Shown: piece after piece, positions 7,377 to 34,369 of the stretch
How positions within the stretch are numbered: position 1 is the first letter of the stretch
Layout of the letters: each line of letters begins with the position of its first letter
Made by a program: the position numbers and the translations under genes
The notes under the pieces: model-generated
What the model saw: only the letters and a program-made list of their open reading frames with translations
Told to the model about the DNA's origin: nothing
The model's database searches: none
Origin: an uncultured virus (IMG/VR IMGVR_UViG_3300013121_000043)
Lineage: Duplodnaviria; Heunggongvirae; Uroviricota; Caudoviricetes
Reading direction: 5' to 3' (one strand)
DNA: 60,303 nucleotides
Virus record (IMG/VR): IMGVR_UViG_3300013121_000043

Positions 7377-9299
7377 ATGCCCGAAGCGGTTCTCTACCAC
7401 GGCTCCGGTCAAAAAATCCGCGACCAGCTTCAGCCGCGTTCCAGCCGTGTTCTGAACGAGGAAAAGGCTGTTTTTGCCACACCTTCCCGGGATACTGCCG
7501 TGTCGTTCATCCCGCGATGGCGTGACCGTGATTTTGAACACGGGCGGATCAACGATCATCCATACATGCGTGAGCAGTACGCTGGTGCCTTTGAAAAGCT
7601 ACTGCGCAACCGTTCGGGCTATCTCTACCATCTTCCCGAGGAGTCATTCCGTTCCGATTCGCGGTTGATGTCGTCGGAACGGATTGCCGACAGCCCGGTG
7701 ACCATTCGACGGCGAGAGCGGATCAAGGACGTGCTACGCGAACTCCAGCAGGCGCGCCGGGCTCTGATAGCTGCTGATGGTCAGAGTTACGATGGGCGAC
7801 CGCTGCCCGCGGATGTACTGCAGTATCTGAAAGAACAGCAAAAACAGGCCAGTCTCAAGGACGATGTGCAGTTACAGCCCCACCAGCAGCGCATCGCCGA
7901 CGAGGCGCGCAAGGAACCGTTGCGCAAGTTACTGCTATGGGGACTGGGCTCGGGCAAGACCCTGGGCAGTCTGGCGGCGGCCGAATCGCACGGCCAGCCC
8001 TATACGGCCGTGGTGCCCGCCGCGTTACGTGGCAACTATCAGCAGGAGCTGTCGCGCTTTACGGACGGAAGGACTCCCGCCGAGGTACTCAGTTACAGTC
8101 AGCTGGCCCTGGGTCGGCAGCCACGCTACCCGGACTCCCTGGTCTTTGACGAAGCCCACCGTCTCCGTAACCCCGAGGGCCGTGCTGCCCAGGCGGCCAG
8201 CGCGCTGGCCCAGAAGGCCAGACAGGTGGTGCTACTCTCGGGCACGCCCCTGACCAACCGCCCGGGTGACCTGGCCGGGTTGATTGGCTTGCTCCAGAAA
8301 AAGTCGATAACCCCCCAGCAGTTTGAAGAACGCTACCTGGCCAAGAAGAAGGTGTATCCCTCGCTGTGGCAGAGCTGGGTTCACGGCATGACACCTGGCG
8401 AGGTGGAGGTACCGGCCAACCTGGACGAGCTACGCGCCATGCTGAAGGGCAAGGTGGATTACTACCAGCCCGAGCAGTCGGTGGTGCCTGTATCCCGGGA
8501 AGATGTTCCTGTCACCATGTCCGACGCCCAGTCGCTTCTCTACAAGAGTATGTGGCAGAAGCTACCCTACATCACGCGCTGGAAGCTCCAGCGTGACTTC
8601 CCCCTGTCCAGCGATGAGCTTCTGAAGCTCCAGGCGTTTCTCTCCGGACCCCGACAGGTATCACTGTCCACCTATCCTTACCTGGCCAAGAAGGATCCAT
8701 ACAAGGCCTACGAGCAGTCTCCCAAGCTACAGAAGGCACTGGAGCTTCTACAGAAAAAACTGCACGGAGACGAGCGTGCCAAGGCGCTGGTGTTCAGTAA
8801 CTTCATCGACGCGGGGTTACGACCCTACGCCTCCGCTCTTGAGCGTGCGGGTATTCCCCACGGACTCTTCCATGGTGGACTCAACGACAAGGAGCGTAAG
8901 CGACTGGTGGACGATTACAATAACGGTAAGCTGCGTGTAGCACTGATCGGTCCCTCTGGTATGGAGGGACTGTCGTTCAAGGGGACACAGTTGCTCCAGC
9001 AGCTGGATCCTCACTTCCATCCTGTCCGTCCGCGTCAGGCCGAGGGTCGGGCGCTACGTTACGATTCCCACGACAGCCTTCCCGAGGAGCTGCGCCACGT
9101 TCACGTCCAGCGGTTCATCTCCCGGTTACCACCCGGGCTGACTGAACGACTGAAATCACTCCTGCTGTGGCGTGACCCTCAGGATGCAGAGGCCAGCGAC
9201 GACCAGCTGCTCCGTCTCTCCCAGCAAAAAGAACAGGTCAACCAGCCGTTTCTGGAGCTACTGCGCCAGGCCGGCCAACCCTCCAGGAAGATACCATGA
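7377..9299 (+). CDS. ADP-ribosyltransferase-like domain fused to SNF2-type SF2 helicase
   Basis: N-terminal LYHGS...VFAT...GYLY...SE pattern (Arr/ART-like). Helicase motifs LQPHQ, GLGSGKT, FDEAH, LSGTP, LVFSNF, EGLSF and QAEGRALR. Confidence 0.8.
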   Translation: MPEAVLYHGSGQKIRDQLQPRSSRVLNEEKAVFATPSRDTAVSFIPRWRDRDFEHGRINDHPYMREQYAGAFEKLLRNRSGYLYHLPEESFRSDSRLMSSERIADSPVTIRRRERIKDVLRELQQARRALIAADGQSYDGRPLPADVLQYLKEQQKQASLKDDVQLQPHQQRIADEARKEPLRKLLLWGLGSGKTLGSLAAAESHGQPYTAVVPAALRGNYQQELSRFTDGRTPAEVLSYSQLALGRQPRYPDSLVFDEAHRLRNPEGRAAQAASALAQKARQVVLLSGTPLTNRPGDLAGLIGLLQKKSITPQQFEERYLAKKKVYPSLWQSWVHGMTPGEVEVPANLDELRAMLKGKVDYYQPEQSVVPVSREDVPVTMSDAQSLLYKSMWQKLPYITRWKLQRDFPLSSDELLKLQAFLSGPRQVSLSTYPYLAKKDPYKAYEQSPKLQKALELLQKKLHGDERAKALVFSNFIDAGLRPYASALERAGIPHGLFHGGLNDKERKRLVDDYNNGKLRVALIGPSGMEGLSFKGTQLLQQLDPHFHPVRPRQAEGRALRYDSHDSLPEELRHVHVQRFISRLPPGLTERLKSLLLWRDPQDAEASDDQLLRLSQQKEQVNQPFLELLRQAGQPSRKIP

Positions 9300-15167: not shown

Positions 15168-18100
15168 ATGAGTAGCTTTCTTGACGGGCTGACCCCGCCC
15201 GAACCCTCTCCGCTTCCCGAACTGGCCACGCCGCAACCCGCGGTAGTGCCCCCTGCCCCGGCGATCTCTCCCACGCCGGGTCCAGGGGTACTACCGCTGA
15301 GCCTGGCCAGCGACAGCGGCATCCCACCGCGGATGGACGATCCCGGGGCACGCAACGCCCTGGTCAACGCCCTGGCCCGGGCGCTCTCCCGCAATCCACG
15401 ACGCGGCTTCCGTCCCAGCCAGCCGCGGCCCCAGGGTGGCGGTGTTGAGAATGACGGTGCCCCGCCGGGCGTGACGCTACGCGATTTTGCCGACCCTCAT
15501 GCCGTGCGCTACGGCATCTACGACCGCGTCCTGGCCGCAGCGTTCAAGGTCCGTCCTGTGGAGAACTCGCGCTACCGACTGCAGCTGGGTGACATCTCCT
15601 GGGCCGAGCCGGCCGAGTTCAGCTACAAGCAGCAGAAAGAAGCGATCCTGGGTGGACGCTCCCTGCACCGTCGACTCAAGGGAACCTATCAGCTGGTGGA
15701 CAAGGCCACGGGCAAGACCGTGGACAGCCGCGATACCACCCTGGCCCACGTTCCCTACTACACTCACCGTGGTACCTTCATCCTCAACGGCACCGAGTAC
15801 ACCATGGGCCACCAGATGCGTCTGCGCTCGGGGGTGTACACGCGTGTCAAGGAATCGGGCGAGCTGGAGGTTCACTGGAACACCCTGCCCGGACGCGGAC
15901 TGTCCCATCGCTATCACCTGGAGCCGGAATCCGGTATCTTCAAGCTCAATATCGGCCAGGCCAACCTGCCACTGATGCCGCTGCTCAAGGCGATGGGCGT
16001 CTCGGACAAGGAGCTGCAGGCGGCCTGGGGCAAGGAGCTCTACCAGAAGAATCAGGAGCAGGATAACCCCAACCTGCTGGACAAGATCTACCAGCGTCTG
16101 GCCGGCAACCGGGGCAAGACGGGGCTGTCGCACGAGGATCGCCGCAAGTACGTGGTGGAACGGTTTCAGCAGATGGAGCTGGACCCGGAGGTGACCCAGC
16201 ACACCCTGGGGAAGCCGTTTACGCACATCACCAAGGACGCCATGCTGGCAGCGACCACCAAGCTGCTCAAGGTCTCTCGGGGCGAGGAGCGTAGCGATGA
16301 TCGCGACGATCTGACCTTCCAGCATTTTTATGGCCCCGAGGATCTCCTGGCCGAGCCGCTGGAGCGTAACGCCGTACCGCTGCAGAAGATGTTGTGGAAG
16401 GCCACCAACCATGGCAATCTGCGCTCCCTGGGCCCGGGACTGATGACCCCGGCGGTGCAGTCGGCTATCTTTGGGAGCGGACTGGCCGCGCCGGCGGAGG
16501 AGGTCAACGCCCTGGATATCTTTGATGCCCAGACCCGTGTCTCGCGCATGGGTCGTGGCTCCATTCAGGACATCGATGCCATTCCCGACAGCGCCCGACA
16601 GGTGCATCCCTCGCAGGTGGGTTTTATCGATCTGTCCCGTACCAGCGAGAGTCTGAAAATCGGCGTCGATCTGCGTCTGGCCCACCGGGCCCGGAAGGGC
16701 TCCGACGGCAAGATCTACACCCCACTTCTGGACCCCAAGACCGGGCGCGAGGTCTACCGCTCGCCCCAGGATATCGCCCGCAGCGTTCTGGCGTTTCCAG
16801 GAGAGCTGGATAGCAACCGGCCCATGGTGGTGGCCCTACAGCACGGACGCACGGTGTATGTTCCACGCAACAAGGTGGATTACGCCCTGCCCCACATGGA
16901 GAACGCCTTCTCGCCCATCACCAACCTGGTGGCGATGAAGTCGCAGGTCAACCCCCAGCGCGTCAGCATGGGCTCACGGTTTCTGATCCAGTCCCTGGCG
17001 TTGCGCGAGGCCGAGGCTCCGTTTGTCCAGCCGCGTGTGCCCGGAAGTGACAAATCGTTTTATGAGCATTACGGACGCCATGCCGGCAACGTCCACGCCC
17101 GCGAGGAGCAGGGTGGCCGCGTGGTCCGGGTCAGCCCGGAAGAGATTGTCGTTCGCTACGACGATGGCAAGGAAAAGACCCACGAGCTGTACAACCACCT
17201 GCCCTACAACCGCAAGTCGTTCATCCACAACACCCCGCTGGTGCGGCAGGGCGACCGGATCGAGCCAGGGCAGTTACTGGCCCACTCCAACTACACCGAC
17301 AAGACCGGCACCATCGCCATGGGCAAGAACCTGCGCGTGGCCTACCTGGCGTTCCCCGGTCCCGGCGGCGAGGCCAACTACGAGGACGCCTTCGTTCTCT
17401 CCGAATCGGCGGCACGCAAGCTGGAGTCAGAGCACGCCTACCAGCATGCCCAGGAGTGGGATGAGACCTACAAGCGCGGCAAGAAGAATTTCATCTCCAT
17501 CTTTCCCACCACCTTTGATCGCAAGAAGCTCGAGACCCTGGATGAGGACGGAGTGATCAAGCCCGGCACGGTGGTCAAGGAAGGGGATCCGCTGATCCTG
17601 GCGGTCAAGCAAAAGGAGCGAACCCACAAGCAGCTTCACGGCGGGCACAAGAGTGGCTGGTCGGATCACACCCAGCTGTGGGAGCATCACAGCGACGGTA
17701 TCGTCACCGACGTGTTCAAGTCCGACAAGGGGACCAACGTCGTCGTCAAGTCGTACATGCCCACCCAGGAGGCGGACAAGCTCTCGGGACGTCATGGAGA
17801 CAAGGGTGTGGTCCGTATCGTCAAGGACGACCAGATGCCCCACGACGAGAACGGTCAGCCGTTTGATATCATCGCCAACCCCCTGGGCGTGATCTCGCGA
17901 GGTAACCCCGGCCAGGTGGTGGAGGCGATTCTGGGCAAGATCACTGCCAAGACCGGGATTCCCTACAAGATCGATGACTTTGATGGGGCCAACGAGGACA
18001 TGATCGAGTGGGCGATGCGCGAGGCGGAAAAGCACGGTGTCTCCGATCTGGAGACCGTGATCGACCCCATGACCGGGCGCAAGATCCCCAACGTACTGAC

Positions 18101-19850
18101 CGGCTACCGCTACTACCTGAAACTGCACCACCTCAGCGAGTCCAAGGGCTCGGCGCGCGGCCTGGGCAGCTACACCGCCGAGGGGCTGCCGGCCCGTGGC
18201 TCCGAGGAGGGTCAGCAGGCCAAGAAGGTGGCGATGATGGACGTGTCGGCGCTGCTGTCGCACTCGGCACTGTCCGTACTGCGTGATAACAAGCTGGTGC
18301 GCGGCAACCAGAATCTCGAGTACTGGACCACGCTGATGTCGGGCAACCGCCCGGCCACGCCACCCGTACCGTTCATGTACGAGAAGTTTATCAACACCCT
18401 GCGTGGCTCGGGTATCAACGTGCAGCGCAAGGGCAATCAGCTCCATCTCATGGCTCTGAGCAACAAGCACCTGGAGGAGCTGGCCGGGGATCGTGAGCTG
18501 AAGAATGTCGAGACGGTGGACTGGAAGGATGGCATGAAGCCGATTCCCGGCGGTCTGTTTGACCCCGGTCTGACCGGCAGCCACGGAGGTAACCGCTGGG
18601 CCAAGATCACCCTGCATGAGCCGCTTCCCAACCCCGTGTTCGAGGAGCCGATTCGCCGCCTGCTCAACCTGACGCAGAAGCAGTTTGAAGCGGTCCTGGC
18701 CGGGGAGGAGAAGCTGGGCGAGCAGACCGGTCCCAGGGCGATCGCCCACGCCCTGGAAAAGATCGATCTGGACAAGGCGATCGAGCAGGCCCGGGCCGAC
18801 ATCGCCTCGGGACGCAAGACCTACCGCGATGCGGCCATCCGCCGCCTGGGCTACCTCAAAGGAGCCAAGAACACCAACACCCACCCGCGGGACTGGCTGC
18901 TCAAGGCCGTGCCCGTGCTGCCTCCCATCTTCCGACCGATCTCGATCATGCAGGGCAGTGGGGGTCAGCTGGTGGCTGATGCCAACCTGCTGTACAAGGA
19001 TCTGTTTGAAGCCAACCAGGTGCTGCGTGACATGTCCGGTCGCGTGGACGATCTGCGCGACGAGCGCCGTAACGTGTACAACGCCTTCAAGGCCGTGGTC
19101 GGCCTGGGCGACCCGGTGAACCCCAAGACCGCCGAGAAGAAGGCCCAGGGGTTACTGGCCCAGCTGCTGGGCAGCAGTCCCAAGCACTCCTGGCTACAGC
19201 AGAAGCTGATCGGCACGCCCGTCAACCTGGTCGGTCGCGCCGTGGCCACGCCGGACACCAACCTGTCGATGGACGAGCTGGGCATCCCCGAGAAGCAGGC
19301 ATGGACGGTGTACAGTCCGTTCATCGTCCGTAACCTGGTGCGCAAGGGTGTGGGTCGCACCCAGGCCCTGGAGTACGTGGAAAAGAAGCATCCCACGGCA
19401 CGCAAGGCGATGATCGAGGAGATGGAGGCCAGCCCGGTGATCATGACCCGGGCCCCGGTGCTGCACCGTTACGGTCACATGGCGTTCTGGCCCAAGCTGG
19501 TCAAGGGCGATACGCTGCGCACCAGTCCGCCGATCACCAAGGGTTATGGTCTGGACTACGACGGCGACACCATCAACTGGCATGTTCCCGTGGAGGAGGA
19601 GGCCCGACGCGAGGCCGCACTCAAGATGCTGCCCAGTCGTAACCTCTTTGCCGTGGCCGATTTCAAGTCTCCTGTCTACGCTCCAACCATGGAGTTTCTG
19701 GGTGGAGCCTACCGGCTGAGCACGGCCAAACCCAGCGGCGGTACACCCCGCGTCTTTGCCACCATGGCTGACTTCAAGCGGGCCTGGCAGGCCGGGGAAC
19801 TGGGTCCGGAGGACACCGTCCATATCGTGGATTCCTCTGCTAAAAAGTAA
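15168..19850 (+). CDS. rpoBC: Phage multisubunit RNA polymerase: beta fused to the N-terminal half of beta'
   Basis: Beta motifs GTFILNGTE, DKLSGRHGDKGV, NPLGVISRGNPGQ and YYLKLHH. Beta' motifs GGLFD, VPVLPPIFRP, TRAPVLHR and the catalytic DYDGD. Likely start is ATG 15168. Confidence 0.95.
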   Translation: MSSFLDGLTPPEPSPLPELATPQPAVVPPAPAISPTPGPGVLPLSLASDSGIPPRMDDPGARNALVNALARALSRNPRRGFRPSQPRPQGGGVENDGAPPGVTLRDFADPHAVRYGIYDRVLAAAFKVRPVENSRYRLQLGDISWAEPAEFSYKQQKEAILGGRSLHRRLKGTYQLVDKATGKTVDSRDTTLAHVPYYTHRGTFILNGTEYTMGHQMRLRSGVYTRVKESGELEVHWNTLPGRGLSHRYHLEPESGIFKLNIGQANLPLMPLLKAMGVSDKELQAAWGKELYQKNQEQDNPNLLDKIYQRLAGNRGKTGLSHEDRRKYVVERFQQMELDPEVTQHTLGKPFTHITKDAMLAATTKLLKVSRGEERSDDRDDLTFQHFYGPEDLLAEPLERNAVPLQKMLWKATNHGNLRSLGPGLMTPAVQSAIFGSGLAAPAEEVNALDIFDAQTRVSRMGRGSIQDIDAIPDSARQVHPSQVGFIDLSRTSESLKIGVDLRLAHRARKGSDGKIYTPLLDPKTGREVYRSPQDIARSVLAFPGELDSNRPMVVALQHGRTVYVPRNKVDYALPHMENAFSPITNLVAMKSQVNPQRVSMGSRFLIQSLALREAEAPFVQPRVPGSDKSFYEHYGRHAGNVHAREEQGGRVVRVSPEEIVVRYDDGKEKTHELYNHLPYNRKSFIHNTPLVRQGDRIEPGQLLAHSNYTDKTGTIAMGKNLRVAYLAFPGPGGEANYEDAFVLSESAARKLESEHAYQHAQEWDETYKRGKKNFISIFPTTFDRKKLETLDEDGVIKPGTVVKEGDPLILAVKQKERTHKQLHGGHKSGWSDHTQLWEHHSDGIVTDVFKSDKGTNVVVKSYMPTQEADKLSGRHGDKGVVRIVKDDQMPHDENGQPFDIIANPLGVISRGNPGQVVEAILGKITAKTGIPYKIDDFDGANEDMIEWAMREAEKHGVSDLETVIDPMTGRKIPNVLTGYRYYLKLHHLSESKGSARGLGSYTAEGLPARGSEEGQQAKKVAMMDVSALLSHSALSVLRDNKLVRGNQNLEYWTTLMSGNRPATPPVPFMYEKFINTLRGSGINVQRKGNQLHLMALSNKHLEELAGDRELKNVETVDWKDGMKPIPGGLFDPGLTGSHGGNRWAKITLHEPLPNPVFEEPIRRLLNLTQKQFEAVLAGEEKLGEQTGPRAIAHALEKIDLDKAIEQARADIASGRKTYRDAAIRRLGYLKGAKNTNTHPRDWLLKAVPVLPPIFRPISIMQGSGGQLVADANLLYKDLFEANQVLRDMSGRVDDLRDERRNVYNAFKAVVGLGDPVNPKTAEKKAQGLLAQLLGSSPKHSWLQQKLIGTPVNLVGRAVATPDTNLSMDELGIPEKQAWTVYSPFIVRNLVRKGVGRTQALEYVEKKHPTARKAMIEEMEASPVIMTRAPVLHRYGHMAFWPKLVKGDTLRTSPPITKGYGLDYDGDTINWHVPVEEEARREAALKMLPSRNLFAVADFKSPVYAPTMEFLGGAYRLSTAKPSGGTPRVFATMADFKRAWQAGELGPEDTVHIVDSSAKK

Positions 19851-19867
19851 GGCGAAGCCTGGCAATA
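19841..19867 (+). promoter_or_regulatory. Cassette promoter motif (copy D)
   Basis: TAAA 19841-19844, N16, GGCAATA 19861-19867; overlaps the end of the RNAP gene. Confidence 0.75.
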
Positions 19868-19903
19868 TCGGGTAGGTCCCGGGTTCCTCATTGGAGGGGG
19901 AAC

Positions 19904-20104
19904 ATGTTCCAGGAGTCGTTACAGTCTCTGCTTGAGGCGCTGTTGCCCGAAGACAGAGACTGGGCAGAGCTGTTGGTACAGTGTAATCCGCAGTCAGCCC
20001 GGGAGGAGATCCAGGAGCGACTGCGGGCCATGTACTGGCGTCCGCCCGTTTTCCAGCATGAGGATAAAAATGAGAAAAGAAACGTCGGAAGGGTCACAGC
20101 CTGA
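19904..20104 (+). CDS. Small hypothetical protein (cassette D)
   Basis: 66 aa with GGAGG RBS. Confidence 0.55.
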   Translation: MFQESLQSLLEALLPEDRDWAELLVQCNPQSAREEIQERLRAMYWRPPVFQHEDKNEKRNVGRVTA

Positions 20105-20549
20105 GCTGTGGCGTGAGGAAATGCCGTTCACGCAGGCCAACGTCTGTCTGTCGACAGAGCTGGTCGACCTTTTGCTTACTTATGGTAAGCAAATGGGACT
20201 CGATCTCACAGCCACGATGACGGTGGTGCTGAACGAGCACTACCGGGATATCCTGGGAGAGATCGTGGATCGGGTTGGCATGTTCCAGGCCGCCGGACAG
20301 ATCGCCCGGGTGCAGCTGTTCCACGAGCTGTCCCGGCAGGAGGAAGACATCCTCAATCTGGCCACGCCCGCCAGGCTGGACGAGGACGAGCCTTTTGGCA
20401 TCGAGCGGCTGAGTGAGTTCGTCCGACTCCTCGCCGACATAAAAAAAGAAAGAGACGTACCAGCGCGTCTCACGGCAAAGGCGCTACTGGCCTATGCCAT
20501 TCGCTGTCGTAGCATCGTCCACCAGCTCCTGATGTTGCAGAGAAAGTAG
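20070..20549 (+). CDS. Hypothetical protein (cassette D)
   Basis: GAGGA RBS and ATG at 20070; 159 aa. Confidence 0.65.
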   Translation: MRKETSEGSQPELWREEMPFTQANVCLSTELVDLLLTYGKQMGLDLTATMTVVLNEHYRDILGEIVDRVGMFQAAGQIARVQLFHELSRQEEDILNLATPARLDEDEPFGIERLSEFVRLLADIKKERDVPARLTAKALLAYAIRCRSIVHQLLMLQRK

Positions 20550-20554
20550 TGTTA

Positions 20555-20602
20555 CACGGCTGTTCCCGCCCAGGGGAACAGCCGTGCTCTTTTTTAGCCA
20601 TC
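20555..20602 (+). terminator. Terminator plus cassette right-end motif (D)
   Basis: CACGGCTGTTCCC/GGGAACAGCCGTG, then TTTTTTAGCCATC. Confidence 0.8.
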
Positions 20603-20659
20603 CCACCGTTGCTTTATCATGGAGGCAGAGGTTTCTACTCCGACTTTGAGGGCCGTACC

Positions 20660-21421
20660 GTGGGTCTCAACCGTACACTTTTGACGCTGGCGCAGCGGCG
20701 TTTGCAAAAACAGGCTGTCTCTCCCCCGGGCGGTGCTCCCCCCGGAGGTGCGCCTCCGATGGATCCGGCCATGATGGGCGGTGGTGGCATGCCACCCATG
20801 GATCCGGCCATGATGGGTGGCGGTGGCATGCCGCCGATGGACCCGGCCATGATGGGTGGTATGCCACCCATGGATCCAGCCATGATGGGCGGTATGCCTC
20901 CTCCTCCGCCTCCGCCACCCGCTCCGGGTGGGCCTAGTGGCGCGCCCGATATCGCCAGTATCGTCAGTCAGGCGGTCCAGCAGGCGATGCAGAACAACGG
21001 CGGTATCGCCGGGCCGGCCCAGGCCGCGGGTGGCAAGCCACCCAAGCCCGACATCAACATGGTGGCCACCGACGTCTTCCAGATCAAGAAGCTCCTGCAG
21101 GATCTGTATAACCGCAACGGCTGGCCGCTACCGGAGGGGATTCTCGACGGTCCCGGACGCGATCCCATGACCGGCATGCCCACGGCCTCCCCCATGGGCG
21201 GCTCGGATCCTGCGGGCAGTCCACCGCCCGGACCGCCTCCGGAGTCGGCCATCAGTCCGATCGGGCCCATGGAAGGAGCATTCCCGACCCCTGGTCAGGG
21301 CAAGAGCGCCCAGGCCAACCACCCTCCGGTCGGCAGTAGCTTCGCACCCACGGAAAGTTTTGCCTCGCGGGCCCAGGCCGTAGCCCGTCTGTTCCAGCGG
21401 CGTAAACAGCATGTGGCTTGA
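20660..21421 (+). CDS. Pro/Gly/Met-rich low-complexity protein
   Basis: Likely GTG start at 20660; leader ends in QKQA; tandem PPMDPAMMGG(GG)M repeats. Confidence 0.7.
   Translation: MGLNRTLLTLAQRRLQKQAVSPPGGAPPGGAPPMDPAMMGGGGMPPMDPAMMGGGGMPPMDPAMMGGMPPMDPAMMGGMPPPPPPPPAPGGPSGAPDIASIVSQAVQQAMQNNGGIAGPAQAAGGKPPKPDINMVATDVFQIKKLLQDLYNRNGWPLPEGILDGPGRDPMTGMPTASPMGGSDPAGSPPPGPPPESAISPIGPMEGAFPTPGQGKSAQANHPPVGSSFAPTESFASRAQAVARLFQRRKQHVA
20753..20900 (+). repeat. Coding tandem repeat (4 x PPMDPAMMGG[GG]M, 33-39 bp units)
   Basis: Repeated ATGGA(T/C)CC(G/A)GCCATGATGGG units. Confidence 0.9.
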
Positions 21422-21659
21422 ACTTCATGATCGGCTGACGGCACCCCTGCGCATACCCGCCACGCGTGTGGTGGTCTATGACGAGCACCAGAACCCGGTG
21501 GCGTTCCTGCTCCAGCTGGGTCCTGGGCATCTGCGCATCTGTCGGGTGGGTGAGCCAGAGTTTGACGAACTGAGGCGGCTGCACGGCATCCAGCAGACCG
21601 TGGTGGTGACTCAGCACGATCTGGCCAAGCTGCCGCCCCTGCCGGTACGGGGGAAGTAA
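21411..21659 (+). CDS. Hypothetical protein
   Basis: 82 aa; abuts the beta' C-half gene. Confidence 0.7.
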   Translation: MWLELHDRLTAPLRIPATRVVVYDEHQNPVAFLLQLGPGHLRICRVGEPEFDELRRLHGIQQTVVVTQHDLAKLPPLPVRGK

Positions 21660-23579
21660 ATGCTCAAGGGAACGGCCGGACAGCTGATCTTACAGAGTGT
21701 GCTGCCCGAGGACATGCGCCAGCCCGATCGTGTGCTGGACAAGAAGGGTATGAGCAAGCTGCTGACCGAGCTGGCCCAGAAGCATCCGGACCAGTACAGC
21801 CAGGTACTGCACCAGCTGATGCGCGTGTCCCACCAGGCGGCCTACTGGACCAACGCCCAGTCGTTTGGTCTGAAGCACTTGCGCGGCGATCCCAGCGTGC
21901 GTAAACTGCGTCAGGAGCTGCAACAGCAGACGGAAGCGATCTGGAATAACAGCCGGCTATCGGACAGGGAGAAGGAGGCCAGGATTGTTACTCTGTCCTC
22001 TGAATATCAGAGCAAGATCGAAGCCGCCACGTTTGCAGCCGCGCAGGCTGCCCAGAACCCTCTTGCCGAACAGGTCGTCTCTGGATCACGTGGTAATAAA
22101 ACCCAGCTCAATACCCTACTTGGAGCACCGGTACTTTATACCGATCATAACGGCGACCCCATCCCCTTCCCTGTATTACGGTCTTTTTCCGAAGGTCTGC
22201 GGCCATATGAGTATTATGCTAGCACCTTCGGCGCTCGCTCCGGTCTGATTGATACCAAGCTCTCCGTGGCCGACACCGGCTTTCTCAGCAAGCAGTTTGT
22301 CCAGGCGGCACACCGTCTCCTGGTCTCGGCCATTGATGCCGACAAGGAAGACGATACCGTACGCGGCTTCCCCGTGTCGGTGGACGATCCCGACAACGAG
22401 GGTGCGTACCTGGCCCAGCCCGTGGGTCCCTACAAGCGCAATACGCTCCTGACACCGGCCATTCTCAGCGATCTGCAAAAACAGGGAGTCAAGCGTCTGC
22501 TGGTACGCTCGCCCACGGTGGGTGGACCTGCCGACGGGGGTGTCTACAGCCGTGACGTGGGGATGCGCGAAAAGGGACGACCGGCTCCCCTGGGCGATTT
22601 TGTCGGCGTGGCCGCGGCCCAGGCTGCCTCGGAGGCGCTGACCCAGGGTGCCCTTAGCTCCAAGCACTCCGCCGGCGTGGCCGGAGCCAACAAGTCAATG
22701 ACCGGGTTTCATCTCATCAACCAGCTCATTCAGGTGCCCAAGACGTTCACCGGCGGGGCCAGCCACGCCCGACTGGACGGCAAGGTCGAGAAGATCGTGC
22801 CGGCTGCCCAGGGCGGTCACTACGTTCGCGTGGGTGGTGTGGAACATTACGTTGGTCAGGGGTTTGACATCACCGTCAAGCCTGGCGACGAGGTGGAGGC
22901 GGGCGACGTCCTCAGCGATGGGATTCCCAACCCTGCCGAGGTGGTGCGCTACAAGGGGATCGGCGAGGGTCGTCGCTACTTCACGCAAACAATGCTGGAT
23001 GCCTACAGGCGCTCGGGCATCACGGCGCACCGCCGTAACCTGGAGCTGATTGCGCGCGGGCTGATCAACCACGTCCGACTCAAGGATGAGTTTGATGAGT
23101 TCGTCCCCGAGGATGTCATGCAGTACAGCCACCTGGAACATCGCTGGCAGCCGCGCGAGGGACACCAGGTGGTCGATCCACGCCAGGCCCGTGGCTGGTA
23201 TCTGGAAAAGCCGGTGCTGCACTATTCGGTCGGTACGCCGATCCGTCCCAGCGTGATCAAGAACCTGCAGGAGTTCAACATCAAGCAGATCGCGGCCCAC
23301 CGCGAGCCGCCCCCGTTTGAACCCGAGATGGTCCGTGGTCTGGAAAACCTCACCCACGACCCGGACTGGCAGACACGCTTCCTGGGCAGCTACGTCAAGA
23401 AGAACCTGCTCAAGGGAGTTCATCGTGGCGATGTCTCCGACGAGCGTGGCACCAGTTATGTCCCGTCGCTGACCCGTGCCGTGGACTTCAACAAGTGGCC
23501 GCCGGTCAAGGGTTACTCGACCGAGGAGCATGGTCCGGTCAAGCGACCGATCCATCTCTCTCCGGAAGTGGACAGCTAA
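21660..23579 (+). CDS. rpoC: RNA polymerase beta' C-terminal half (bridge helix, trigger loop)
   Basis: SGSRGN; SFSEGL..YEYYASTFGARSGLIDT....DTGFLSK (bridge helix); GVAAAQAASEALTQGALSSKHSAG (trigger loop); VEAGDVLSDG. Confidence 0.93.
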   Translation: MLKGTAGQLILQSVLPEDMRQPDRVLDKKGMSKLLTELAQKHPDQYSQVLHQLMRVSHQAAYWTNAQSFGLKHLRGDPSVRKLRQELQQQTEAIWNNSRLSDREKEARIVTLSSEYQSKIEAATFAAAQAAQNPLAEQVVSGSRGNKTQLNTLLGAPVLYTDHNGDPIPFPVLRSFSEGLRPYEYYASTFGARSGLIDTKLSVADTGFLSKQFVQAAHRLLVSAIDADKEDDTVRGFPVSVDDPDNEGAYLAQPVGPYKRNTLLTPAILSDLQKQGVKRLLVRSPTVGGPADGGVYSRDVGMREKGRPAPLGDFVGVAAAQAASEALTQGALSSKHSAGVAGANKSMTGFHLINQLIQVPKTFTGGASHARLDGKVEKIVPAAQGGHYVRVGGVEHYVGQGFDITVKPGDEVEAGDVLSDGIPNPAEVVRYKGIGEGRRYFTQTMLDAYRRSGITAHRRNLELIARGLINHVRLKDEFDEFVPEDVMQYSHLEHRWQPREGHQVVDPRQARGWYLEKPVLHYSVGTPIRPSVIKNLQEFNIKQIAAHREPPPFEPEMVRGLENLTHDPDWQTRFLGSYVKKNLLKGVHRGDVSDERGTSYVPSLTRAVDFNKWPPVKGYSTEEHGPVKRPIHLSPEVDS

Positions 23580-23603
23580 AAAAACACCAGAAGTGTGGCA
23601 ATA
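23577..23603 (+). promoter_or_regulatory. Cassette promoter motif (copy E)
   Basis: TAAA 23577-23580 (includes the rpoC stop codon), N16, GGCAATA 23597-23603. Confidence 0.75.
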
Positions 23604-23607
23604 CTCT

Positions 23608-23823
23608 GTGAGGGAGTTAGCACACACCGCTCCCTCGCCCCGGTGGGATAATTATCCTGTCCCACCGGGGATTTGCCCTTCCTACTGCAGCGTCCCTCAC
23701 GGCGCAAGGCAGTAGGCGGGCAGCGGCCGGACACGACACCGTAGTCCGTAAGGACTGTGTCCGGCCGCCTATTTTCTGCAGACCAGGAGCCACCCACGGT
23801 GGTAGCTCCTGGTCTTTTTTTTT
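23608..23823 (+). ncRNA. Putative structured ncRNA of about 215 nt (cassette E)
   Basis: No ATG between promoter and terminator; five consecutive hairpins, including AGTCC-GTAA-GGACT (GNRA loop). Confidence 0.55.
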
Positions 23824-23830
23824 AGCTATC
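23781..23830 (+). terminator. Terminator plus cassette right-end motif (E)
   Basis: GACCAGGAGC...GCTCCTGGTC, then T9 and AGCTATC. Confidence 0.8.
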
Positions 23831-23898: not shown

Positions 23899-26418
23899 AT
23901 GTCTGTTATCCGGATCCTCCCCCGTGATCGTGCCCTGGCCGAGCTGCGCGCCCTGCAGCGTCCACGCCAGTATTTTCTGGAGAAACGCTCGGCGCTGGAT
24001 GGCTCCCAGGAGACTGGTTTTGAGCAGGCGCTGTCGACCCTGGGCCATTCCTACATGGCCGAGAAGGCTCCCAAGCTTCTGCCCTACGAGCTAGGGTTCC
24101 AGCTGGTGGAGAAGAACGACGACGGTACCCGGGCCGTGGGTATCTTTGCCTTCAAGGTCGGTACACAGTTTCTCTACGCCCCGGTCTTCTATCTCAACGG
24201 CGACCTCAAGGGGCACGAACTTCTTTACATCAAGAACCAGGATCTGTTCGTACCGTTACGAGACGACTGGGTCACCTACCTGCTCGGGCGCAAGCCCCTG
24301 GACCTGGGTGATAACGTCAACCGCAACCTGGCCAGCCTGGGGGTCCAGGGTCCCAACTTCTACCAGCTGGCGCGCTCCCCGCAGAAATACGCCTCGGTAC
24401 ACGAGGACTGGAAGCAGGCAGCTCTGGCCGAGGTGGCGCACTTTGCCACCACCTCTCCCAGCGTCGCCTTTGCCGGCAAGCCGTTTGATTTGGGTCAGTT
24501 CGTCAAGACCGCGGGTAGCTGGGCCTATCGTGGTCTGCTCCAGCTCTGCCAGGCTCGACCCACCCTGGTCCAGGAGGTGGATCGCTACCATCCCGGCCTG
24601 CTGGAAGAGGGAGCACGGCTTTACGGTGCCCAGGCCAAGCAGGCGTCCGTACGCCGCTGGGACAGTGGGGCCACTCCCCGGGACGTCCTGTCGCGCGTGC
24701 GTGTGGAGAAGATCGAATCCGGCCAGGACGCCCTGGATGCCATCCCCAGCTACACCCGTAACGAGATGCCGCATCGCCGCCGGCAGCGCTCGCTGCTGGA
24801 GACCATGGAGCAGGGAGCCCAGACCAAGCAGGCGGGTAAGCGCAAGGGCAAGGTCGAAGCCTACATGGACGATGGTCCGGATGTGCGCGACCTGACCGCT
24901 CCCGAAAAAGAACAGCTGCTGCGCAAGCGCTACTACATTCGCGACAGTCGGGACGACGAGGAGATCAACAAGGCCTACGACACCACGGTACCGCTGCGGC
25001 TGCACAACCCGGATGAGACCAACCTCTACCAGGTACTGCTGGCTCCCGACCGCTTTGCCACCTGCCTGGTACTCATGCACCCCTACTCCAACCACGGGCG
25101 ACACCATCTCTGCACCGTGATCGAGCTAGAGAGCAAGCGCTGGTGCAACACCCACCCCACCAACGTCTGGGTACGTGCCAGTGGCAGCAAGGAGTCGTTC
25201 CAGAAATGGTACGACGATCTCCCCGAGCCCGATGGCGATCCCGGCGGCCTGGTGGTGCTGCTCACGGCCAACGGCGAGGGTACGGTTCCGTTTCGTCTCA
25301 GTGAGCGTCATGGCAGCGTGGTCAACGCCGAGAACAGCGGCCTCTGGGAGGTCAGCTTCCGGCACTACGCGGCCTCGGAAAGTGATGGTCTGAGCACCAT
25401 CCGGGATCATAACAGTCCCTTCTTTACCTATTCCAGCGAGCGCTACCCGAGTGCCGAGCGTGTGCGCTTCACGGGCAAGACAGGTGGGCGCATGGCCGTG
25501 CGCGGTCGGGGCGAGCTGTGGGTACCCGCCGATATCAAGATCCTGAAACTCCCGGGCAAGCCCGGTGTCTCCAGCGACGAGGACTGCTGTGCTCCCTGCG
25601 AGTACACGTCGGAGCCAGGACCCCTGGAGCCAGGTAACCTTGCCGATGTCCAGCTGCTGCTGCACGACACCACCTACCCCCTGCAGGTCACGGCGCGCAA
25701 GGAGCAGGTGACCCTGAAAAGCGGGGCGGCGCAGACTCCGGTCCTGACCCCCGAGCAGGCGATCGTTGCCCTGGTTACCCAGCACAACCTGCGCGAGAAG
25801 ACCGCTGCGGCCCTGGTGCAGCGTGCCCAGGAGCGTGGTGCGGTGTACTGCCGGGTCAAGGCGGCCAACACCACCGCCAACATGATCACGGAAGCGCCGT
25901 CGGCTCCTGGCTTTCCCGAGATGCCGGTGGGCTACGATCCCATGACTGGTGGTCGCTATCCCACCCAGGAGGCGACCAGCTGGGCCCTGCCTGTCAATGA
26001 TCTATTGACCAATCTCAACAACCGTGAAGCGTACAACCCCCTGATCCCTCCGGACCACTCGGCGCTACAGTCCGTGGAGCAGGCGGCCCAGACCGGCCAG
26101 CGCGAGATCTTTGACACCGCGGCCCTGGGTAGTCTGCTCAAGAGCGTGCGCGATGACAGTGTGATTGACCGCTATCTGCCCGAGCTCCTGAAGGGGATGA
26201 ACGCCCTGGGTCGGCTGCTGTTCTCCTTCTACTGGCACCAGGATAACTTCGCCGACCGCTACGGCAAGGCGGATCTGCGCGAGATCGAGGATGGTCTGCG
26301 TAACGCCTTTGAAAGCATTGGCGAGATTCTCCTGACCCTGAAAGCACGTACGGTCAACCCGGCCCTGGACGAGGGTCTGGGTTCGGATGACTCCCTGGAG
26401 GACGTGGCCAACGTCTGA
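23899..26418 (+). CDS. Large putative head/internal virion protein
   Basis: 839 aa in the head module; at least seven K-x-A motifs. Confidence 0.65.
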   Translation: MSVIRILPRDRALAELRALQRPRQYFLEKRSALDGSQETGFEQALSTLGHSYMAEKAPKLLPYELGFQLVEKNDDGTRAVGIFAFKVGTQFLYAPVFYLNGDLKGHELLYIKNQDLFVPLRDDWVTYLLGRKPLDLGDNVNRNLASLGVQGPNFYQLARSPQKYASVHEDWKQAALAEVAHFATTSPSVAFAGKPFDLGQFVKTAGSWAYRGLLQLCQARPTLVQEVDRYHPGLLEEGARLYGAQAKQASVRRWDSGATPRDVLSRVRVEKIESGQDALDAIPSYTRNEMPHRRRQRSLLETMEQGAQTKQAGKRKGKVEAYMDDGPDVRDLTAPEKEQLLRKRYYIRDSRDDEEINKAYDTTVPLRLHNPDETNLYQVLLAPDRFATCLVLMHPYSNHGRHHLCTVIELESKRWCNTHPTNVWVRASGSKESFQKWYDDLPEPDGDPGGLVVLLTANGEGTVPFRLSERHGSVVNAENSGLWEVSFRHYAASESDGLSTIRDHNSPFFTYSSERYPSAERVRFTGKTGGRMAVRGRGELWVPADIKILKLPGKPGVSSDEDCCAPCEYTSEPGPLEPGNLADVQLLLHDTTYPLQVTARKEQVTLKSGAAQTPVLTPEQAIVALVTQHNLREKTAAALVQRAQERGAVYCRVKAANTTANMITEAPSAPGFPEMPVGYDPMTGGRYPTQEATSWALPVNDLLTNLNNREAYNPLIPPDHSALQSVEQAAQTGQREIFDTAALGSLLKSVRDDSVIDRYLPELLKGMNALGRLLFSFYWHQDNFADRYGKADLREIEDGLRNAFESIGEILLTLKARTVNPALDEGLGSDDSLEDVANV

Positions 26419-26451
26419 GTCTGGTTTTTTGATGCCAATAACGAGGCGCAC

Positions 26452-27375
26452 ATGTTTTTCACCGAACACGATCTGTATCGACCTGCCGACTGGCGCTACC
26501 GCCGGGCGGACTGGCTGCGTGCCAACGGTCGGTACACGCGCAAGAACAAGGATGATCGTTACGTGGCGCTGGCCCGACGCTACCTGGTCCAGCGTGAGAA
26601 GTGCCAGGATGTCTACGCTGAGGAGCGTCTGGCCAACCAGATGCCCGGTCTCTACTACGCGCACAAGATCTATCTGCGTACGGAGACGGATGATCGCTGG
26701 ACCATTGAAGCACGTATCCTGGCCGACCAGCCGGTCAACCTGATCGCCCGCAAGCAGCACACCACGCCGGAGGTGATCTGGTGGTACGAGAAGCTGTTCT
26801 TCGATGTGCGCGACAAGCTGCAGTCGCGCGATTACATCATTAACCGCGTACTCGGTCCTGCCGTCCATCGTGGTATCAACGAGCGTGATTTCGATCTTCT
26901 CCTGAAGCTGTATGCCCTGCTGGGTGGACCGCTGGTGGTGGATGCCCTGGTGAGCATGTCCATGCTCACGGGAGCCAAGCCCCAGAACGAGCAGGAGCTC
27001 GAGGCGTACTTCAAGCGCGATACCGCCGACTGCGTGCGACGCAAGGCCTCGCTGGCCGCGCGCTGTGTGCCCATTAACAGCCACACGCAGATGACCCTGC
27101 TGGATACGCATCACAAGCTGCTGGCCCTGGAGCAGGCCAAGGATGATGGCATTGATGCCACCAACCAGATCATCACCAGTCTGCAGACCACCCTGGCCAA
27201 CATTCCGTTCCATGCCGCCAAGGAAAGACCATCGCTACCTGCTCTACAGGGGTACGACAAGCTGTCGGTCGAGCTGCGTGCCGATGAGTTGATTCGCGCC
27301 GGCACGGGTGAAGAGCTTAATCTGAAAGAAGAGCTGACTCTGTTCCAGTTTCCGCAAGAGGAGAGCCATGGCTGA
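26452..27375 (+). CDS. Hypothetical protein
   Basis: 307 aa with GAGG RBS; overlaps the next gene. Confidence 0.75.
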   Translation: MFFTEHDLYRPADWRYRRADWLRANGRYTRKNKDDRYVALARRYLVQREKCQDVYAEERLANQMPGLYYAHKIYLRTETDDRWTIEARILADQPVNLIARKQHTTPEVIWWYEKLFFDVRDKLQSRDYIINRVLGPAVHRGINERDFDLLLKLYALLGGPLVVDALVSMSMLTGAKPQNEQELEAYFKRDTADCVRRKASLAARCVPINSHTQMTLLDTHHKLLALEQAKDDGIDATNQIITSLQTTLANIPFHAAKERPSLPALQGYDKLSVELRADELIRAGTGEELNLKEELTLFQFPQEESHG

Positions 27376-28759
27376 AAAACTGTCGCGCCAGGATCAGAGT
27401 CGTCTACTGACTGCCCTGGATGAGATTAGCGATCTGCTGGAAAACGGCAGTAGCCCCAATGACGCCGTGGTCAAGGTGGCCCAGGAGCACAAGATCCCGG
27501 CGGGCCACGTTCGTCCGCTGATTCATGCCCTGAATACCGGTCGAGCCAACTTCCATCGCAAGACCGCCGAGTCGGTTCTGGAGAAGGCCAGCTCCATCAG
27601 CCTGGCGGATCCGGACATCATCCTGGAACGGCTCTACCCCAGCCAGCACAAGAGCGCGGCCACCTACCATCAGCAGCGTGTGATCGCCGTCGATTACGAC
27701 CTGCCGCCGCCCAGCCTGACACCCTCACCGGCCCTGTGCAAGCAGGCCAGTGACATCACGACCCAGACTCCGCCCGCCTATCCTCGGGAAGACACCCGGG
27801 ATGCCCGGCGCATCTTCAGTGCCCTCCAGGATTTCGACCGTCTGTGTACCGAGAAGGAGATCACCCTGACCGACTGCCAGCGTAAGCTGGCCAGCTGCTA
27901 CCAGGAGGTGGATGCCCTGGTCCGTCGCAATGGGCTGACCTGCTGGTCGGAGGTACGGGCCAACCTGGAAGCAGGTTTTGGCGCTCCCGCCAGAATGGTC
28001 TGTCAGCACCTGGAACGAGACTACCCCCAGCTGCAAAAGCAGGCCCAGCAGAAAAGCTATCAACCGCTCAATCCGCACCAGAGCCCCTACCGGGAGCTCT
28101 GCCAGCTTCTGGATCAACTGACCGAGTATCGGCAGCACAAGCGCGCCTACACCCAGCTACGTAACGATCCCGGTTACCACAAGCTGGCCGAGCGGTTTCG
28201 CCCCTGGACCAAGGAGGCGAAAAAAGAGGAAGACGGTGGCGGAGGAGGTGCCGGCGGGGTCGGCAAGGGCATGGGCAAGCTACTGGGTGGAGTAGTCAAG
28301 GGTACGGGTAGTCTACTGCCGTCGGGTCGCGAAGGTCTGGGTAACGCCTGGGAAACCGTGGGTCGCTCGTTTCTTGACAACCAGGTCTATCCGGACATGG
28401 AACGTAGGGAGCTGAGTGGTCTGGAAGATCTCATGGATCCCCAGCACGAGGCCATGCTCCTGCAGGCCCGCACCAAGGCGATGTTGCATGACTTTCTCGC
28501 CAACGATCCAGTCATCTCCGAGTATGATCCCGAGGAGGTGTTGCGCTCCTTTAACGAGTTACAGCAGATGGCTCCTTACGCCATCAGCCAGCCTGCCCTG
28601 GTCCGGGCGGTGCTGCGCAAGTATCTCGCCCAGGGCGGCGTGGACACCCACGAGCTCGGACAGCTGACCACGACCGAAAAGGAGCTGCAGGAGGTGCGCT
28701 CCCGACCGATGGCGGCACCGGGCACCCTGTCCCAGTTACGCAGTTCGCCGCGGCGCTAA
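27368..28759 (+). CDS. Putative head/internal virion protein
   Basis: 463 aa; KVA, KTA, KSA, KQA (x2) and KEA motifs; Gly-rich linker. Confidence 0.65.
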   Translation: MAEKLSRQDQSRLLTALDEISDLLENGSSPNDAVVKVAQEHKIPAGHVRPLIHALNTGRANFHRKTAESVLEKASSISLADPDIILERLYPSQHKSAATYHQQRVIAVDYDLPPPSLTPSPALCKQASDITTQTPPAYPREDTRDARRIFSALQDFDRLCTEKEITLTDCQRKLASCYQEVDALVRRNGLTCWSEVRANLEAGFGAPARMVCQHLERDYPQLQKQAQQKSYQPLNPHQSPYRELCQLLDQLTEYRQHKRAYTQLRNDPGYHKLAERFRPWTKEAKKEEDGGGGGAGGVGKGMGKLLGGVVKGTGSLLPSGREGLGNAWETVGRSFLDNQVYPDMERRELSGLEDLMDPQHEAMLLQARTKAMLHDFLANDPVISEYDPEEVLRSFNELQQMAPYAISQPALVRAVLRKYLAQGGVDTHELGQLTTTEKELQEVRSRPMAAPGTLSQLRSSPRR

Positions 28760-28787
28760 TCTTCTTCTCTGGCTGTGAGTCCCACCC

Positions 28788-29978
28788 ATGCTTCCCGATC
28801 TTGACTGGAATCAGGCCGATTACGCCGCGACGTTTCGCCAGGCGGTCAAGCTGGCTCAACAGAACCGGGCCATGACCAAGCAGGCCAATCCCAAGCCGGC
28901 GGCACCGCCACCGCCCACAGCACCCAAGTCCACGACACCTACCCCACCCGCGCCGACCAAGCTGGGTGTTCCTCCCACGGAACCCTGGGACCGCCACCTG
29001 GCCTGGGGCCTGATGGGAACAGGAATTGGTGCGGGAATGGGCGCGCTTCGTAACATCGGTCGCAAGCGCACCAGCTACCTCCGGGACATGCTTCTGGGTG
29101 GAGCCATGGGCGGGATGGCCGGCGGGGGTATCAGTTACGGCCTGAACGCCATGGGAGACGCGACCAAGGAGCCAGCCAGTCCGAAGGGAATGAAGCTGGT
29201 GAGTCAGCTCACCGAGGCCGTGGACAGCGCGGAAAAAGGTGGACGACTTCCCGATGCCGCCGTGGCCAAGGTCCGGGGTCTGATTGACCAGCTCTCCCCT
29301 CAGCCCGGAGAAAACGCCGGAACCTACAACACGCGGGCCCAGGGTGTCCTTGCAGAAATTAGCAAGGAGATGCGTGGCAAGACCAAGCTACCCTGGCTCA
29401 GCATGGGCACCAACGAGCTGTACGACATGTACCAGGACTGGGACGGCTATCGCCTGGGTACGGCAGGTCTGGGATTGGGCCTCGGTGCTACCCACAAGCT
29501 TCTCAACATGCGTCATCTCGGTAACCAGCAGACCCTGGCAGGCTTGCGTTCGACAACAAAAATAGACGGCCCTCTGCGGGATTACCACAGATACATGATC
29601 AACCCCAAATCGAACCCGTCGACCGGGGCGCTGGATTTTTACAAATCGTTACGTCACTCCTCCGGAACCAATACACCCACTGTTGGTTTTTGGGGTGGTA
29701 TTAACCACGAAGGTACGCTTCCCAACAAAACCGTCATGGAAGCAGCCAGGCTGCGTGGTCAGGGTATTGTCAAAAAACCGATCTCTCTCTTACGAGGCAA
29801 CGCCGCCTCCCTGGCCCTGACCGCGGCACCCCTGCTAATGGACATCATCTACCGTGGTCTATCGCGCAACACGCCTGTTGGTCCGCGAAGCCACGAGGCT
29901 TACGGGGTCGAGCAGGGCAGTAAGGCTGTACAGGACTACTACCGGGAGATTCTATCGCAGGGGAATAAAAAGCCATGA
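28788..29978 (+). CDS. Gly-zipper putative virion protein
   Basis: Leader with KLA and KQA; GLMGTGIGAGMG and GGAMGGMAGGG helices. Confidence 0.65.
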   Translation: MLPDLDWNQADYAATFRQAVKLAQQNRAMTKQANPKPAAPPPPTAPKSTTPTPPAPTKLGVPPTEPWDRHLAWGLMGTGIGAGMGALRNIGRKRTSYLRDMLLGGAMGGMAGGGISYGLNAMGDATKEPASPKGMKLVSQLTEAVDSAEKGGRLPDAAVAKVRGLIDQLSPQPGENAGTYNTRAQGVLAEISKEMRGKTKLPWLSMGTNELYDMYQDWDGYRLGTAGLGLGLGATHKLLNMRHLGNQQTLAGLRSTTKIDGPLRDYHRYMINPKSNPSTGALDFYKSLRHSSGTNTPTVGFWGGINHEGTLPNKTVMEAARLRGQGIVKKPISLLRGNAASLALTAAPLLMDIIYRGLSRNTPVGPRSHEAYGVEQGSKAVQDYYREILSQGNKKP

Positions 29979-34309: not shown

Positions 34310-34369
34310 TCACCTCCCCTCCTCCCTTCTGCCCGACGTGCCTTCTACCTACCAAGAGGATTGACAGCG

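Follow-up and report, generated by a model that had tools for sequence, protein, structure and literature searches.

A 60,303-nucleotide stretch of DNA from an uncultured virus of the Caudoviricetes (IMG/VR record IMGVR_UViG_3300013121_000043; the window) encodes one bacterial-type RNA polymerase (RNAP) in two cysteine-free chains, a fusion of beta with the N-terminal part of beta' (beta-beta'N) and a separate C-terminal part (beta'C). The two chains probably assemble with neither alpha nor omega. The window makes up the right half of G000, a viral contig of 122,303 bases estimated to be 61% complete. The fused-and-split layout is a trait of a large phage group and not an assembly error, and what is new here is a layout variant within the known virion-type two-barrel phage RNAPs. 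We consider it probable that the enzyme is a virion-packaged, alpha-less and sigma-dependent early RNAP. The head probably contains both chains together with a FliA-like sigma factor of the phage and an SNF2 ATPase, and the enzyme would be ejected with the DNA and transcribe early genes from TAAA-N16-GGCAATA promoters. The two RNAP genes have the following features:

15168-19850, plus strand: fused RNAP chain of 1560 amino acids in one open frame, with both double-psi barrels and no cysteine (Pfam, alignment)
15168-15476, plus strand: Pro-rich N-terminal extension of ~103 amino acids, variable in the family alignment
18420-18450, plus strand: beta/beta' junction ...GINVQRKG-NQLHLMAL..., with no stop and conserved in the family (translation and alignment)
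18567-18599, plus strand: GLTGSHGGNRW, replacing the N-terminal Zn ribbon of beta' (C70/72/85/88; alignment)
19548-19568, plus strand: catalytic loop GLDYDGD, which retains the three Asp and shows N458>G, A459>L and F461>Y in Salmonella numbering (translation)
21660-23579, plus strand: C-terminal half of beta', 639 amino acids, from beta' ~575, with funnel, bridge helix, trigger loop and jaw and no cysteine (Pfam, alignment)
22503-22562, plus strand: second Zn site without cysteines (VRSPTVGG...GVYSRDVG), ligands C814/888/895/898 all gone (alignment)

Alignment with RpoB and RpoC of Salmonella, taken from an annotated record, assigned residues ~104-1089 of the fused chain to beta and residues ~1090-1560 to beta' 1-~557. 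By Pfam, the fused chain carries Rpb2 domains 2, 3 and 6 and then Rpb1 domains 1 and 2, and the 639-amino-acid chain carries Rpb1 domain 5. The fused chain matches bacterial subunits at E 1e-62, and bacterial beta and beta' are its best solved relatives. An earlier note on this DNA had described beta as running directly into beta', with both barrels in one chain, and the single frame from 15168 to 19850 bears this out. GLDYDGD and ADKLSGRHGDKG align to Salmonella NADFDGD and GDKMAGRHGNKG, with the DxDGD triad and two beta-barrel lysines in place. Residues D814, K1065, K1073, R1106 and H1237 of beta are kept, as are the three catalytic aspartates, R352, R425, Q929 and H936 of beta'; we presume for these residues the roles that we associate with the E. 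coli enzyme. At the level of sequence, the bridge helix, trigger-loop histidine, clamp helices and flap can all be aligned to Salmonella beta and beta', with the substitutions M932>L and R933>S and a short flap tip. The large proteobacterial insertions are absent from the phage chains, in agreement with the streamlined bacterial-type enzyme proposed earlier.

Translation likewise confirmed the catalytic loop that the note had reported. Relatives mostly carry GADFDGD or NADFDGD: counts among the best 120 of 1,315 family matches are 62 for FGADFDGD, 21 for FNADFDGD, 17 for FGMDFDGD and 2 for YGLDYDGD (including the window protein), and the loop pattern used left 5 of these 120 unmatched. We rejected GLDYDGD as the mark of a special enzyme since the family loop varies freely around DxDGD; the catalytic Asp and Lys residues are invariant across the family alignments. 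The Pro-rich extension of about 100 residues was correctly noted for the window protein, but it is missing or much shorter in most relatives shown, and the chain of the cultured Salmonella phage Arash begins nearly at the conserved core. Neither this unusual loop nor the extension is what makes the enzyme significant.

A single-sequence scan of viral contigs matched no relatives, whereas an alignment-based query did retrieve them. With residues 850-1560 of the fused chain as query, 1,315 of 8,000 scored candidates matched at E<=1e-20, the weaker ones possibly including bacterial subunits. The best 120 of these cover 76-100% of the query region at 53-70% identity (self excluded) and lie on contigs of up to ~235 kb. 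After clustering at 50% identity, one alignment crossed the junction in 146 of the 150 representatives; because relatives this diverse cross it in one piece, an assembly error is ruled out. A gap of 9-17 amino acids marks the Zn-ribbon position in 131 of these 146 alignments, the other 15 being unparsed. Matches from the phage collection that cross the junction in one piece came from Arash and from Vibrio phages D181, D148 and D69, all of which share with the window phage the beta-beta'N junction, the beta' split, the deleted Zn ribbon and a DYDGD loop. Six IMG/VR loci with markers on two open reading frames (ORFs) were considered as unfused close relatives and rejected, as they break within beta (~875 or ~1015) and not at the junction. 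Breaks inside beta recur among relatives; D181 differs from the window phage in that its beta is interrupted beside a homing endonuclease. The RNAP genes are also a hot spot for inteins, with chains of up to 3,350 amino acids (P0121-P0266; L059, L074-L082; L002:17213-22727).

The catalytic-loop family PF00623 occurs at one locus per genome in five of five genomes. A quick beta'N tree placed 20 fused phage sequences on one side with SH-aLRT 100, under long-branch warnings, and apart from both 26 bacteria and the phages RHph_Y65 and Va2. A second quick tree gave three lineages, namely the window's clade, Arash/D181 and a single-chain group, with a root support of 36. Of the phylogeny that the note had called for, the beta'N tree covers the comparison with bacteria and with Y65 and Va2, the sole separate-beta' phages included, and the fused phages separate from both.

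Both RNAP chains together contain no cysteine in 2,199 amino acids. The replacement of the N-terminal Zn domain of beta' by GLTGSHGGNRW, as read earlier, was upheld by the Salmonella alignment; the deletion amounts to 32 residues and is common to Arash and D181. The loss of cysteines from the second Zn site, also claimed, holds for the window phage but not for Arash, D181 and L073, the 3 of 65 full-length beta'C chains that retain all four ligands (59 of 65 are Cys-free). The Zn ribbon was thus lost throughout the family, and loss of the second site is confined to the clade of the window phage. Among fused chains of 1400-1600 amino acids, 82 of 92 are cysteine-free. Cysteine makes up 0.018% of the aligned fused chain (18/101,399 amino acids, 79 loci), 0.015% of aligned beta'C (6/40,752, 68 loci) and none of aligned SNF2 (0/2,899), compared with 1.0% in the neighbouring ORF 23899, 2.3% in the neighbouring ORF 13182 and 1.2% in ORFs of at least 200 amino acids in genome G002. 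Loss of cysteine may ease passage through tail and periplasm, and the available sections of two reports describe cysteine suppression as a mark of ejected proteins in N4-like phages (PMC11445570, PMC3915230); the sections of PMC10654107 at hand yielded nothing on cysteine. Since the capsid and tail-tube proteins of Arash are Cys-free too, we take cysteine depletion as support, not proof.

Evidence from virions comes from Arash (OQ632216), which is grown on a laboratory strain and whose gp206 (1525 amino acids) and gp216 (606 amino acids) show the junction and the split as in the window phage. Gp206 is 30% identical to the fused chain over 1,506 columns and gp216 28% identical to beta'C, and their genes lie between the portal and capsid genes. 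The window encodes homologues of Arash gp217 (SNF2), gp218, gp222, gp226 (capsid), gp233, gp234 and gp236. Arash resembles the window phage in the position of the RNAP between head genes and in homologous capsid, gp222 and SNF2 proteins; Arash and D181 differ from it in their ~30% identity and in the retained second-site cysteines. The assignment of ORF 13896 to Arash gp205/D181 0262 rested on likeness by eye and position and was dropped (BLASTP E 1.2). Two of the homologues in the window are:

7377-9299, plus strand: SNF2-family ATPase, no cysteine, orthologue of Arash gp217 (Pfam, BLAST)
34361-35293, plus strand: major capsid protein, orthologue of Arash gp226, with one K-x-A near the N-terminus (homology)

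According to Table 2 of the Arash study, in the part of that article available, virion mass spectrometry detected gp206 more than any other protein (3516 spectra/128 unique peptides), together with gp216 (1210/40), the sigma factor gp10 (467/24), SNF2 gp217 (1148/38) and the capsid protein (1333/30) (PMC10585845). Recounted from this table per 100 amino acids, spectra amount to 231 for gp206, 200 for gp216, 200 for gp10 and 243 for gp217, with 434 for capsid and 152 for portal. Unique peptides per 100 amino acids come to 8.4, 6.6, 10.3 and 8.1 for gp206, gp216, gp10 and gp217, respectively; capsid, portal and tail proteins range from 5.5 to 9.8, and seven replication or metabolic enzymes picked as non-structural from 0.2 to 1.4. 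Gp196, the other sigma factor of Arash, does not appear in that table. In the sections available, the Arash authors annotate gp206 simply as beta and the fusion goes unmentioned (PMC10585845). The packaging in virions suggested by the earlier note therefore gains indirect backing, from the orthologous Arash chains.

We compared the window phage with relatives G001-G006 and G008 and with the cultured phages Arash and D181. Alpha (PF01000) and omega (PF01192) were each searched in five genomes, each set including Arash and three records of 90% completeness or more; neither was found in any of the five, and controls scored 14/14. PF01000 was also not found in the ~61% complete 122-kb contig, which extends the earlier remark that no alpha subunit is visible in the window. 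The covalent beta-beta'N link may do the job of the alpha dimer, bringing the two barrels together. Orthologues of gp10 were present in all four other genomes searched (D181, G001, G002, G003), always without cysteine and always in the baseplate module. These gp10-type sigmas carry sigma region 3 and, weakly, regions 2 and 4, and the best NCBIfam match of Arash gp10 is FliA/WhiG. A copy was not seen in the window phage because the contig ends before the baseplate module. Other sigma-related genes of G000 are:

G000 C1:60703-62157, minus strand: RpoD-like sigma, gp196 homologue, the ORF reaching into the window at 1-157
G000 C1:4797-4982 and C1:15956-16108: two shorter sigma70-region-2 (Sigma70_r2) genes (profile match)

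None of these genes was found in G001-G003. G002, which is complete, gave no Sigma70_r2 match and no gp196 homologue; because it lacks any other detectable sigma, the gp10-type factor is the likely reader of promoters resembling TAAA-N16-GGCAATA. The pattern TAAA-N15-17-GGCAATA occurs at 12 sites in G000 (11 at N16) and at none in 20 simulated genomes. Five promoter-like sites lie in the window (1565, 3759, 7304 on the minus strand, 19861 and 23597), two of them at the ends of the RNAP genes:

19841-19867, plus strand: candidate sigma28-like promoter TAAA-N16-GGCAATA, sharing bases with the end of the fused gene (pattern scan)
23577-23603, plus strand: sigma28-like promoter candidate directly 3' of beta'C (pattern scan)

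With a relaxed pattern of the same spacing, G002 yields 11 sites against 2 in its control, and G006 yields 7 against 0. The phage motif resembles E. coli FliA sites with a changed -10, these sites being given as TAAA-N15-GCCGATAA in the available text of PMC4183435. As an exact string, the promoter motif is not general. A spaced-word scan of Arash recovered nothing beyond tRNA boxes and an AT-rich element; the latter, identical over ~100 bases at five sites (~26700, 66470, 100200, 138550, 173320), is a candidate promoter or origin.

A further motif, TTTTTAGCTATC-like, gave 6 matches against 0.06 expected (window 3718, 4485, 6985 on the minus strand, 20591, 23571 on the minus strand, and 23819). 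Several of these sites follow GC-rich hairpins and look terminator-like, and others are the reverse complement of the promoter -35 part. TATCAT stands 12 bases after the motif at 20591 and 23819, ahead of head-module genes, as a possible late promoter. Between the promoter candidate and a terminator-like hairpin, window 23600-23830 holds ~200 bases with inverted repeats and no long ORF, possibly a small RNA.

A sister family carries the whole enzyme in a single chain. At L099:8195-14392, beta, beta'N and beta'C form one 2,066-amino-acid chain on a 162-kb phage-like contig binned, perhaps wrongly, in a cyanobacterial (Leptolyngbyaceae) metagenome-assembled genome; single-chain beta-beta' phage RNAPs of ~2,050-2,110 amino acids comprise L099 and P0267-P0386. 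The best 120 matches to the L099 beta'N/beta'C boundary cover 88-100% of that query. Exactly four cysteines occur in 64 and five in 14 of the 81 intein-free single chains. The boundary linker, placeable in 114 of the best 120, is long in 68 and short in 46. In 43/68 long-linker and 2/46 short-linker chains a K-x-A is found no more than 16 residues from where beta'C starts, against a background of 6.6%; a wider pattern, chosen after viewing, gave 57/68 and 5/46. The long-linker chains fall in two subclades and so represent few independent events. In the fused-and-split phages, an inserted beta'N loop carries KEA in Arash gp206 and KQAS in the D181 chain; K-x-A is not enriched in the RNAP chains of the window (2 against 2.8 expected, and 0 against 1.0).

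The same motif marks proteins of the head module. K-x-A-small, first noticed by eye in window head proteins, occurs 8 times against 1.0 expected in ORF 29975 and 7 times against 0.75 in ORF 27368, and is also enriched in Arash gp220 (9 against 1.3), gp223, gp222 and gp242. Both capsid proteins, of the window phage and of Arash, have one K-x-A near the N-terminus. K-x-A-small-rich head-module proteins extend over window 23899-33201 and G000 C1:50728-53826, with probable prohead-protease sites. One of these proteins is a likely prohead protease:

29975-31792, plus strand: homologue of Arash gp222, K-x-A-rich, with a mini-intein right after GVSMS (Pfam, homology)

This assignment is a lead only, as is the match of its intein-free homologue to the nearest named atlas clusters, Peptidase_S77 (0.91) and S78 (0.90). 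K-x-A may be a head-protease site, and the beta'N/beta'C boundary may be kept cuttable. In the single-chain relatives the head protease would then cut at this boundary, so that head maturation would divide the polymerase into ejectable pieces. It is possible, though we hold the idea only tentatively, that a large lineage of myoviruses injects a sigma70-dependent holoenzyme, the smallest of bacterial type known, working without alpha, omega or zinc, with its own FliA-like sigma and sigma28-like promoters, and with a programmed division at beta'N/beta'C, made as a gene split in the window's clade and Arash and as a K-x-A cut in the single-chain relatives.

Several points weigh against a packaged early enzyme. 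The window phage is known from genes alone, the virion evidence being that of Arash, whose preparation was purified by sucrose gradient only and lists 116 proteins, replication enzymes among them; in the available text its authors allow for carry-over of abundant proteins (PMC10585845). With a single RNAP gene set, the same enzyme may act late too. Of five other genomes, three (G002, G003, Arash) have the SNF2 gene, which was not found in the remaining two, G001 and D181. If a substitute for alpha had diverged far, Pfam would miss it. The G000 contig (61% complete) lacks a gp10-type sigma, the sole match there in the search for it being the RpoD-like gene at E 1e-4. Scans for the promoter pattern gave no site in G001, G003, G004, G005, G008 or Arash, and D181 did not rise above background. 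Finally, a low cysteine content is not confined to ejected proteins, the Arash capsid and tail-tube proteins also having none, and Arash beta'C retains all four Zn cysteines. It is nevertheless unlikely, in our judgement, that this RNAP is no virion component but is made during infection and transcribes middle or late genes, with host RNAP serving the early genes and carry-over explaining the Arash particles. The many enzymes listed for the sucrose-gradient preparation, the one RNAP set per genome and the generally low cysteine content of virion proteins would suit such an enzyme. However, gp206 is the top protein of the virion table, the unique-peptide density of the four components is like that of structural proteins and at least five times that of replication enzymes, and the RNAP is encoded in the head module and the sigma in the baseplate module.

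A hybrid enzyme, in which packaged phage chains need host parts (an alpha dimer or sigma28/WhiG) after entry, seems to us quite improbable. The beta segments DDQMPHDENG and DPMTGRKI, which we take to adjoin alpha in the bacterial enzyme, are still alignable, and the phage promoter resembles FliA sites. Its -10, however, is unlike the FliA CCGATA core and its spacer exceeds that of FliA sites by one base. A FliA-like sigma is encoded within the clade itself, and phiKZ-type cores function without alpha according to the available text of PMC7598289. That assembly or annotation produced the fusion as an artefact, or that the genes are a decaying host-derived rpoBC, we regard as barely conceivable. 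The junction is uncovered by read sets, two public DNA runs with small shares missing it; in a public DNA run, possibly from the source sample, one 244-bp contig spans 19420-19663 with zero letter differences. Yet the same junction recurs in 146 of the 150 representatives and in four cultured phages, and the fused sequences, with invariant catalytic Asp and Lys, form a clade apart from the 26 bacteria. We therefore retain a virion-packaged, alpha-less and sigma-dependent early RNAP as the preferred reading.

The two RNAP genes of the window are separated by three ORFs:

19932-20549, plus strand: 205-amino-acid ORF with 7 cysteines, unconserved (0 matches in fetched loci)
20549-21421, plus strand: Pro/Gly/Met-rich ORF with BLAST homologues in 13 loci and positional Cys-free ORFs of ~240 amino acids elsewhere
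21411-21659, plus strand: 82-amino-acid ORF immediately 5' of beta'C, conserved in the window's clade (small upstream ORF in 49/71 loci, most alignable)

The 205-amino-acid ORF, which lies behind a promoter candidate, is probably an inserted gene and no part of the RNAP. The Pro/Gly/Met-rich ORF or a positional counterpart sits between both RNAP genes in many relatives. For the 82-amino-acid protein no family was found and the atlas search returned no usable match, and its reading as a split-off Zn ribbon or omega was rejected; the same reading was rejected for Arash gp215, which is unlike a Zn ribbon and not in the virion table. Elsewhere in the window, three paralogues with an alpha-L-arabinofuranosidase B-like domain (PF09206; 36542-39157, 39584-41251 and 52239-53996) are probable tail or decoration adhesins. 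A left-arm ORF of G000 contains a tandem repeat of the unit GCATGGGATGCTGCACGG (C1:20419-20630). A Planctomycetes host, proposed from a likeness of the G000 ORFs C1:20223-20969 and C1:37564-38319 to Planctomycetes repeat-companion proteins, was dropped, as neither gave an NCBIfam match.

If the proposed enzyme is real, its two chains and sigma factor, zinc-free in the window's clade, would show what alpha and the Zn sites do; to our knowledge, all cellular RNAPs need an alpha-type assembly platform. It would also show the delivery of a ~240-kDa two-chain polymerase through a contractile tail. In the single-chain relatives, a bacterial-type polymerase is available as one gene. The cellular core, alpha2 beta beta' omega, is not what the window phage encodes, which is without alpha, omega and both beta' Zn sites. 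Cellular beta-beta' fusions (NCBIfam PRK09603, PRK14844) likewise join the beta C-terminus to the beta' N-terminus, and cyanobacterial gamma/beta' is split, as here, close to the rpoC1/rpoC2 boundary, but the NCBIfam scores are far under the cut-offs (278 against 5372 bits; gamma 149 against 1117). Cellular RNAPs, as far as is known, keep alpha and the Zn sites. Fusion and split together were not found in the NCBIfam models searched, and we found no paper describing this layout in a search that left most subscription literature outside.

Among phage enzymes, mReC, Rhizobium phage RHph_Y65 and Vibrio phage Va2 resemble the window phage in being phage-encoded, alignable to cellular beta/beta' and on a branch apart from bacteria. 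The mReC definition, in the available text, asks for separate beta and beta' of at least 800 amino acids each and NADxDGD (PMC7481178), compared with fused 1560 and 639 amino acids and GLDYDGD here, so that the fused layout drops out of the published mReC screen. In Y65 and Va2, beta' is undivided (1127 and 1192 amino acids) and contains 16-17 cysteines, including those of the Zn ribbon; both phages fall outside the fused clade. The crAss-like and P23-45 enzymes, as far as the descriptions available go, share with our reading both barrels in one chain and virion delivery; among the single-chain two-barrel phage RNAPs, those of crAss and YonO have diverged too far for a match to COG0085/0086, unlike the window chain with its E 1e-62. 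N4 vRNAP, from the accounts available, is likewise a Cys-free ejected enzyme, but of an unrelated T7-like family.

The closest functional parallel is the phiKZ/AR9 type, which, in the available parts of PMC7598289 and PMC7824862, also has no alpha or omega, splits beta' just past the double-psi barrel and, as in our reading of the Arash type, packages one enzyme in the virion with a linked Swi2/Snf2 ATPase. These phages are described there as having two enzymes each, beta in 2-3 pieces, no recognisable sigma and weak similarity to bacterial subunits. The known alpha-less phage enzymes (phiKZ, AR9) thus use no recognisable sigma, whereas the window phage has one enzyme with the whole of beta fused to beta'N, and its relatives a sigma70-family factor. 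The fused RNAP works most like a phiKZ-type virion RNAP, yet it is not one, because it is a single enzyme with a whole beta and a real sigma. Its place is with the Arash-type fused-and-split RNAPs, whose junction, split, Zn-ribbon deletion and head-module position are all found in the window phage.

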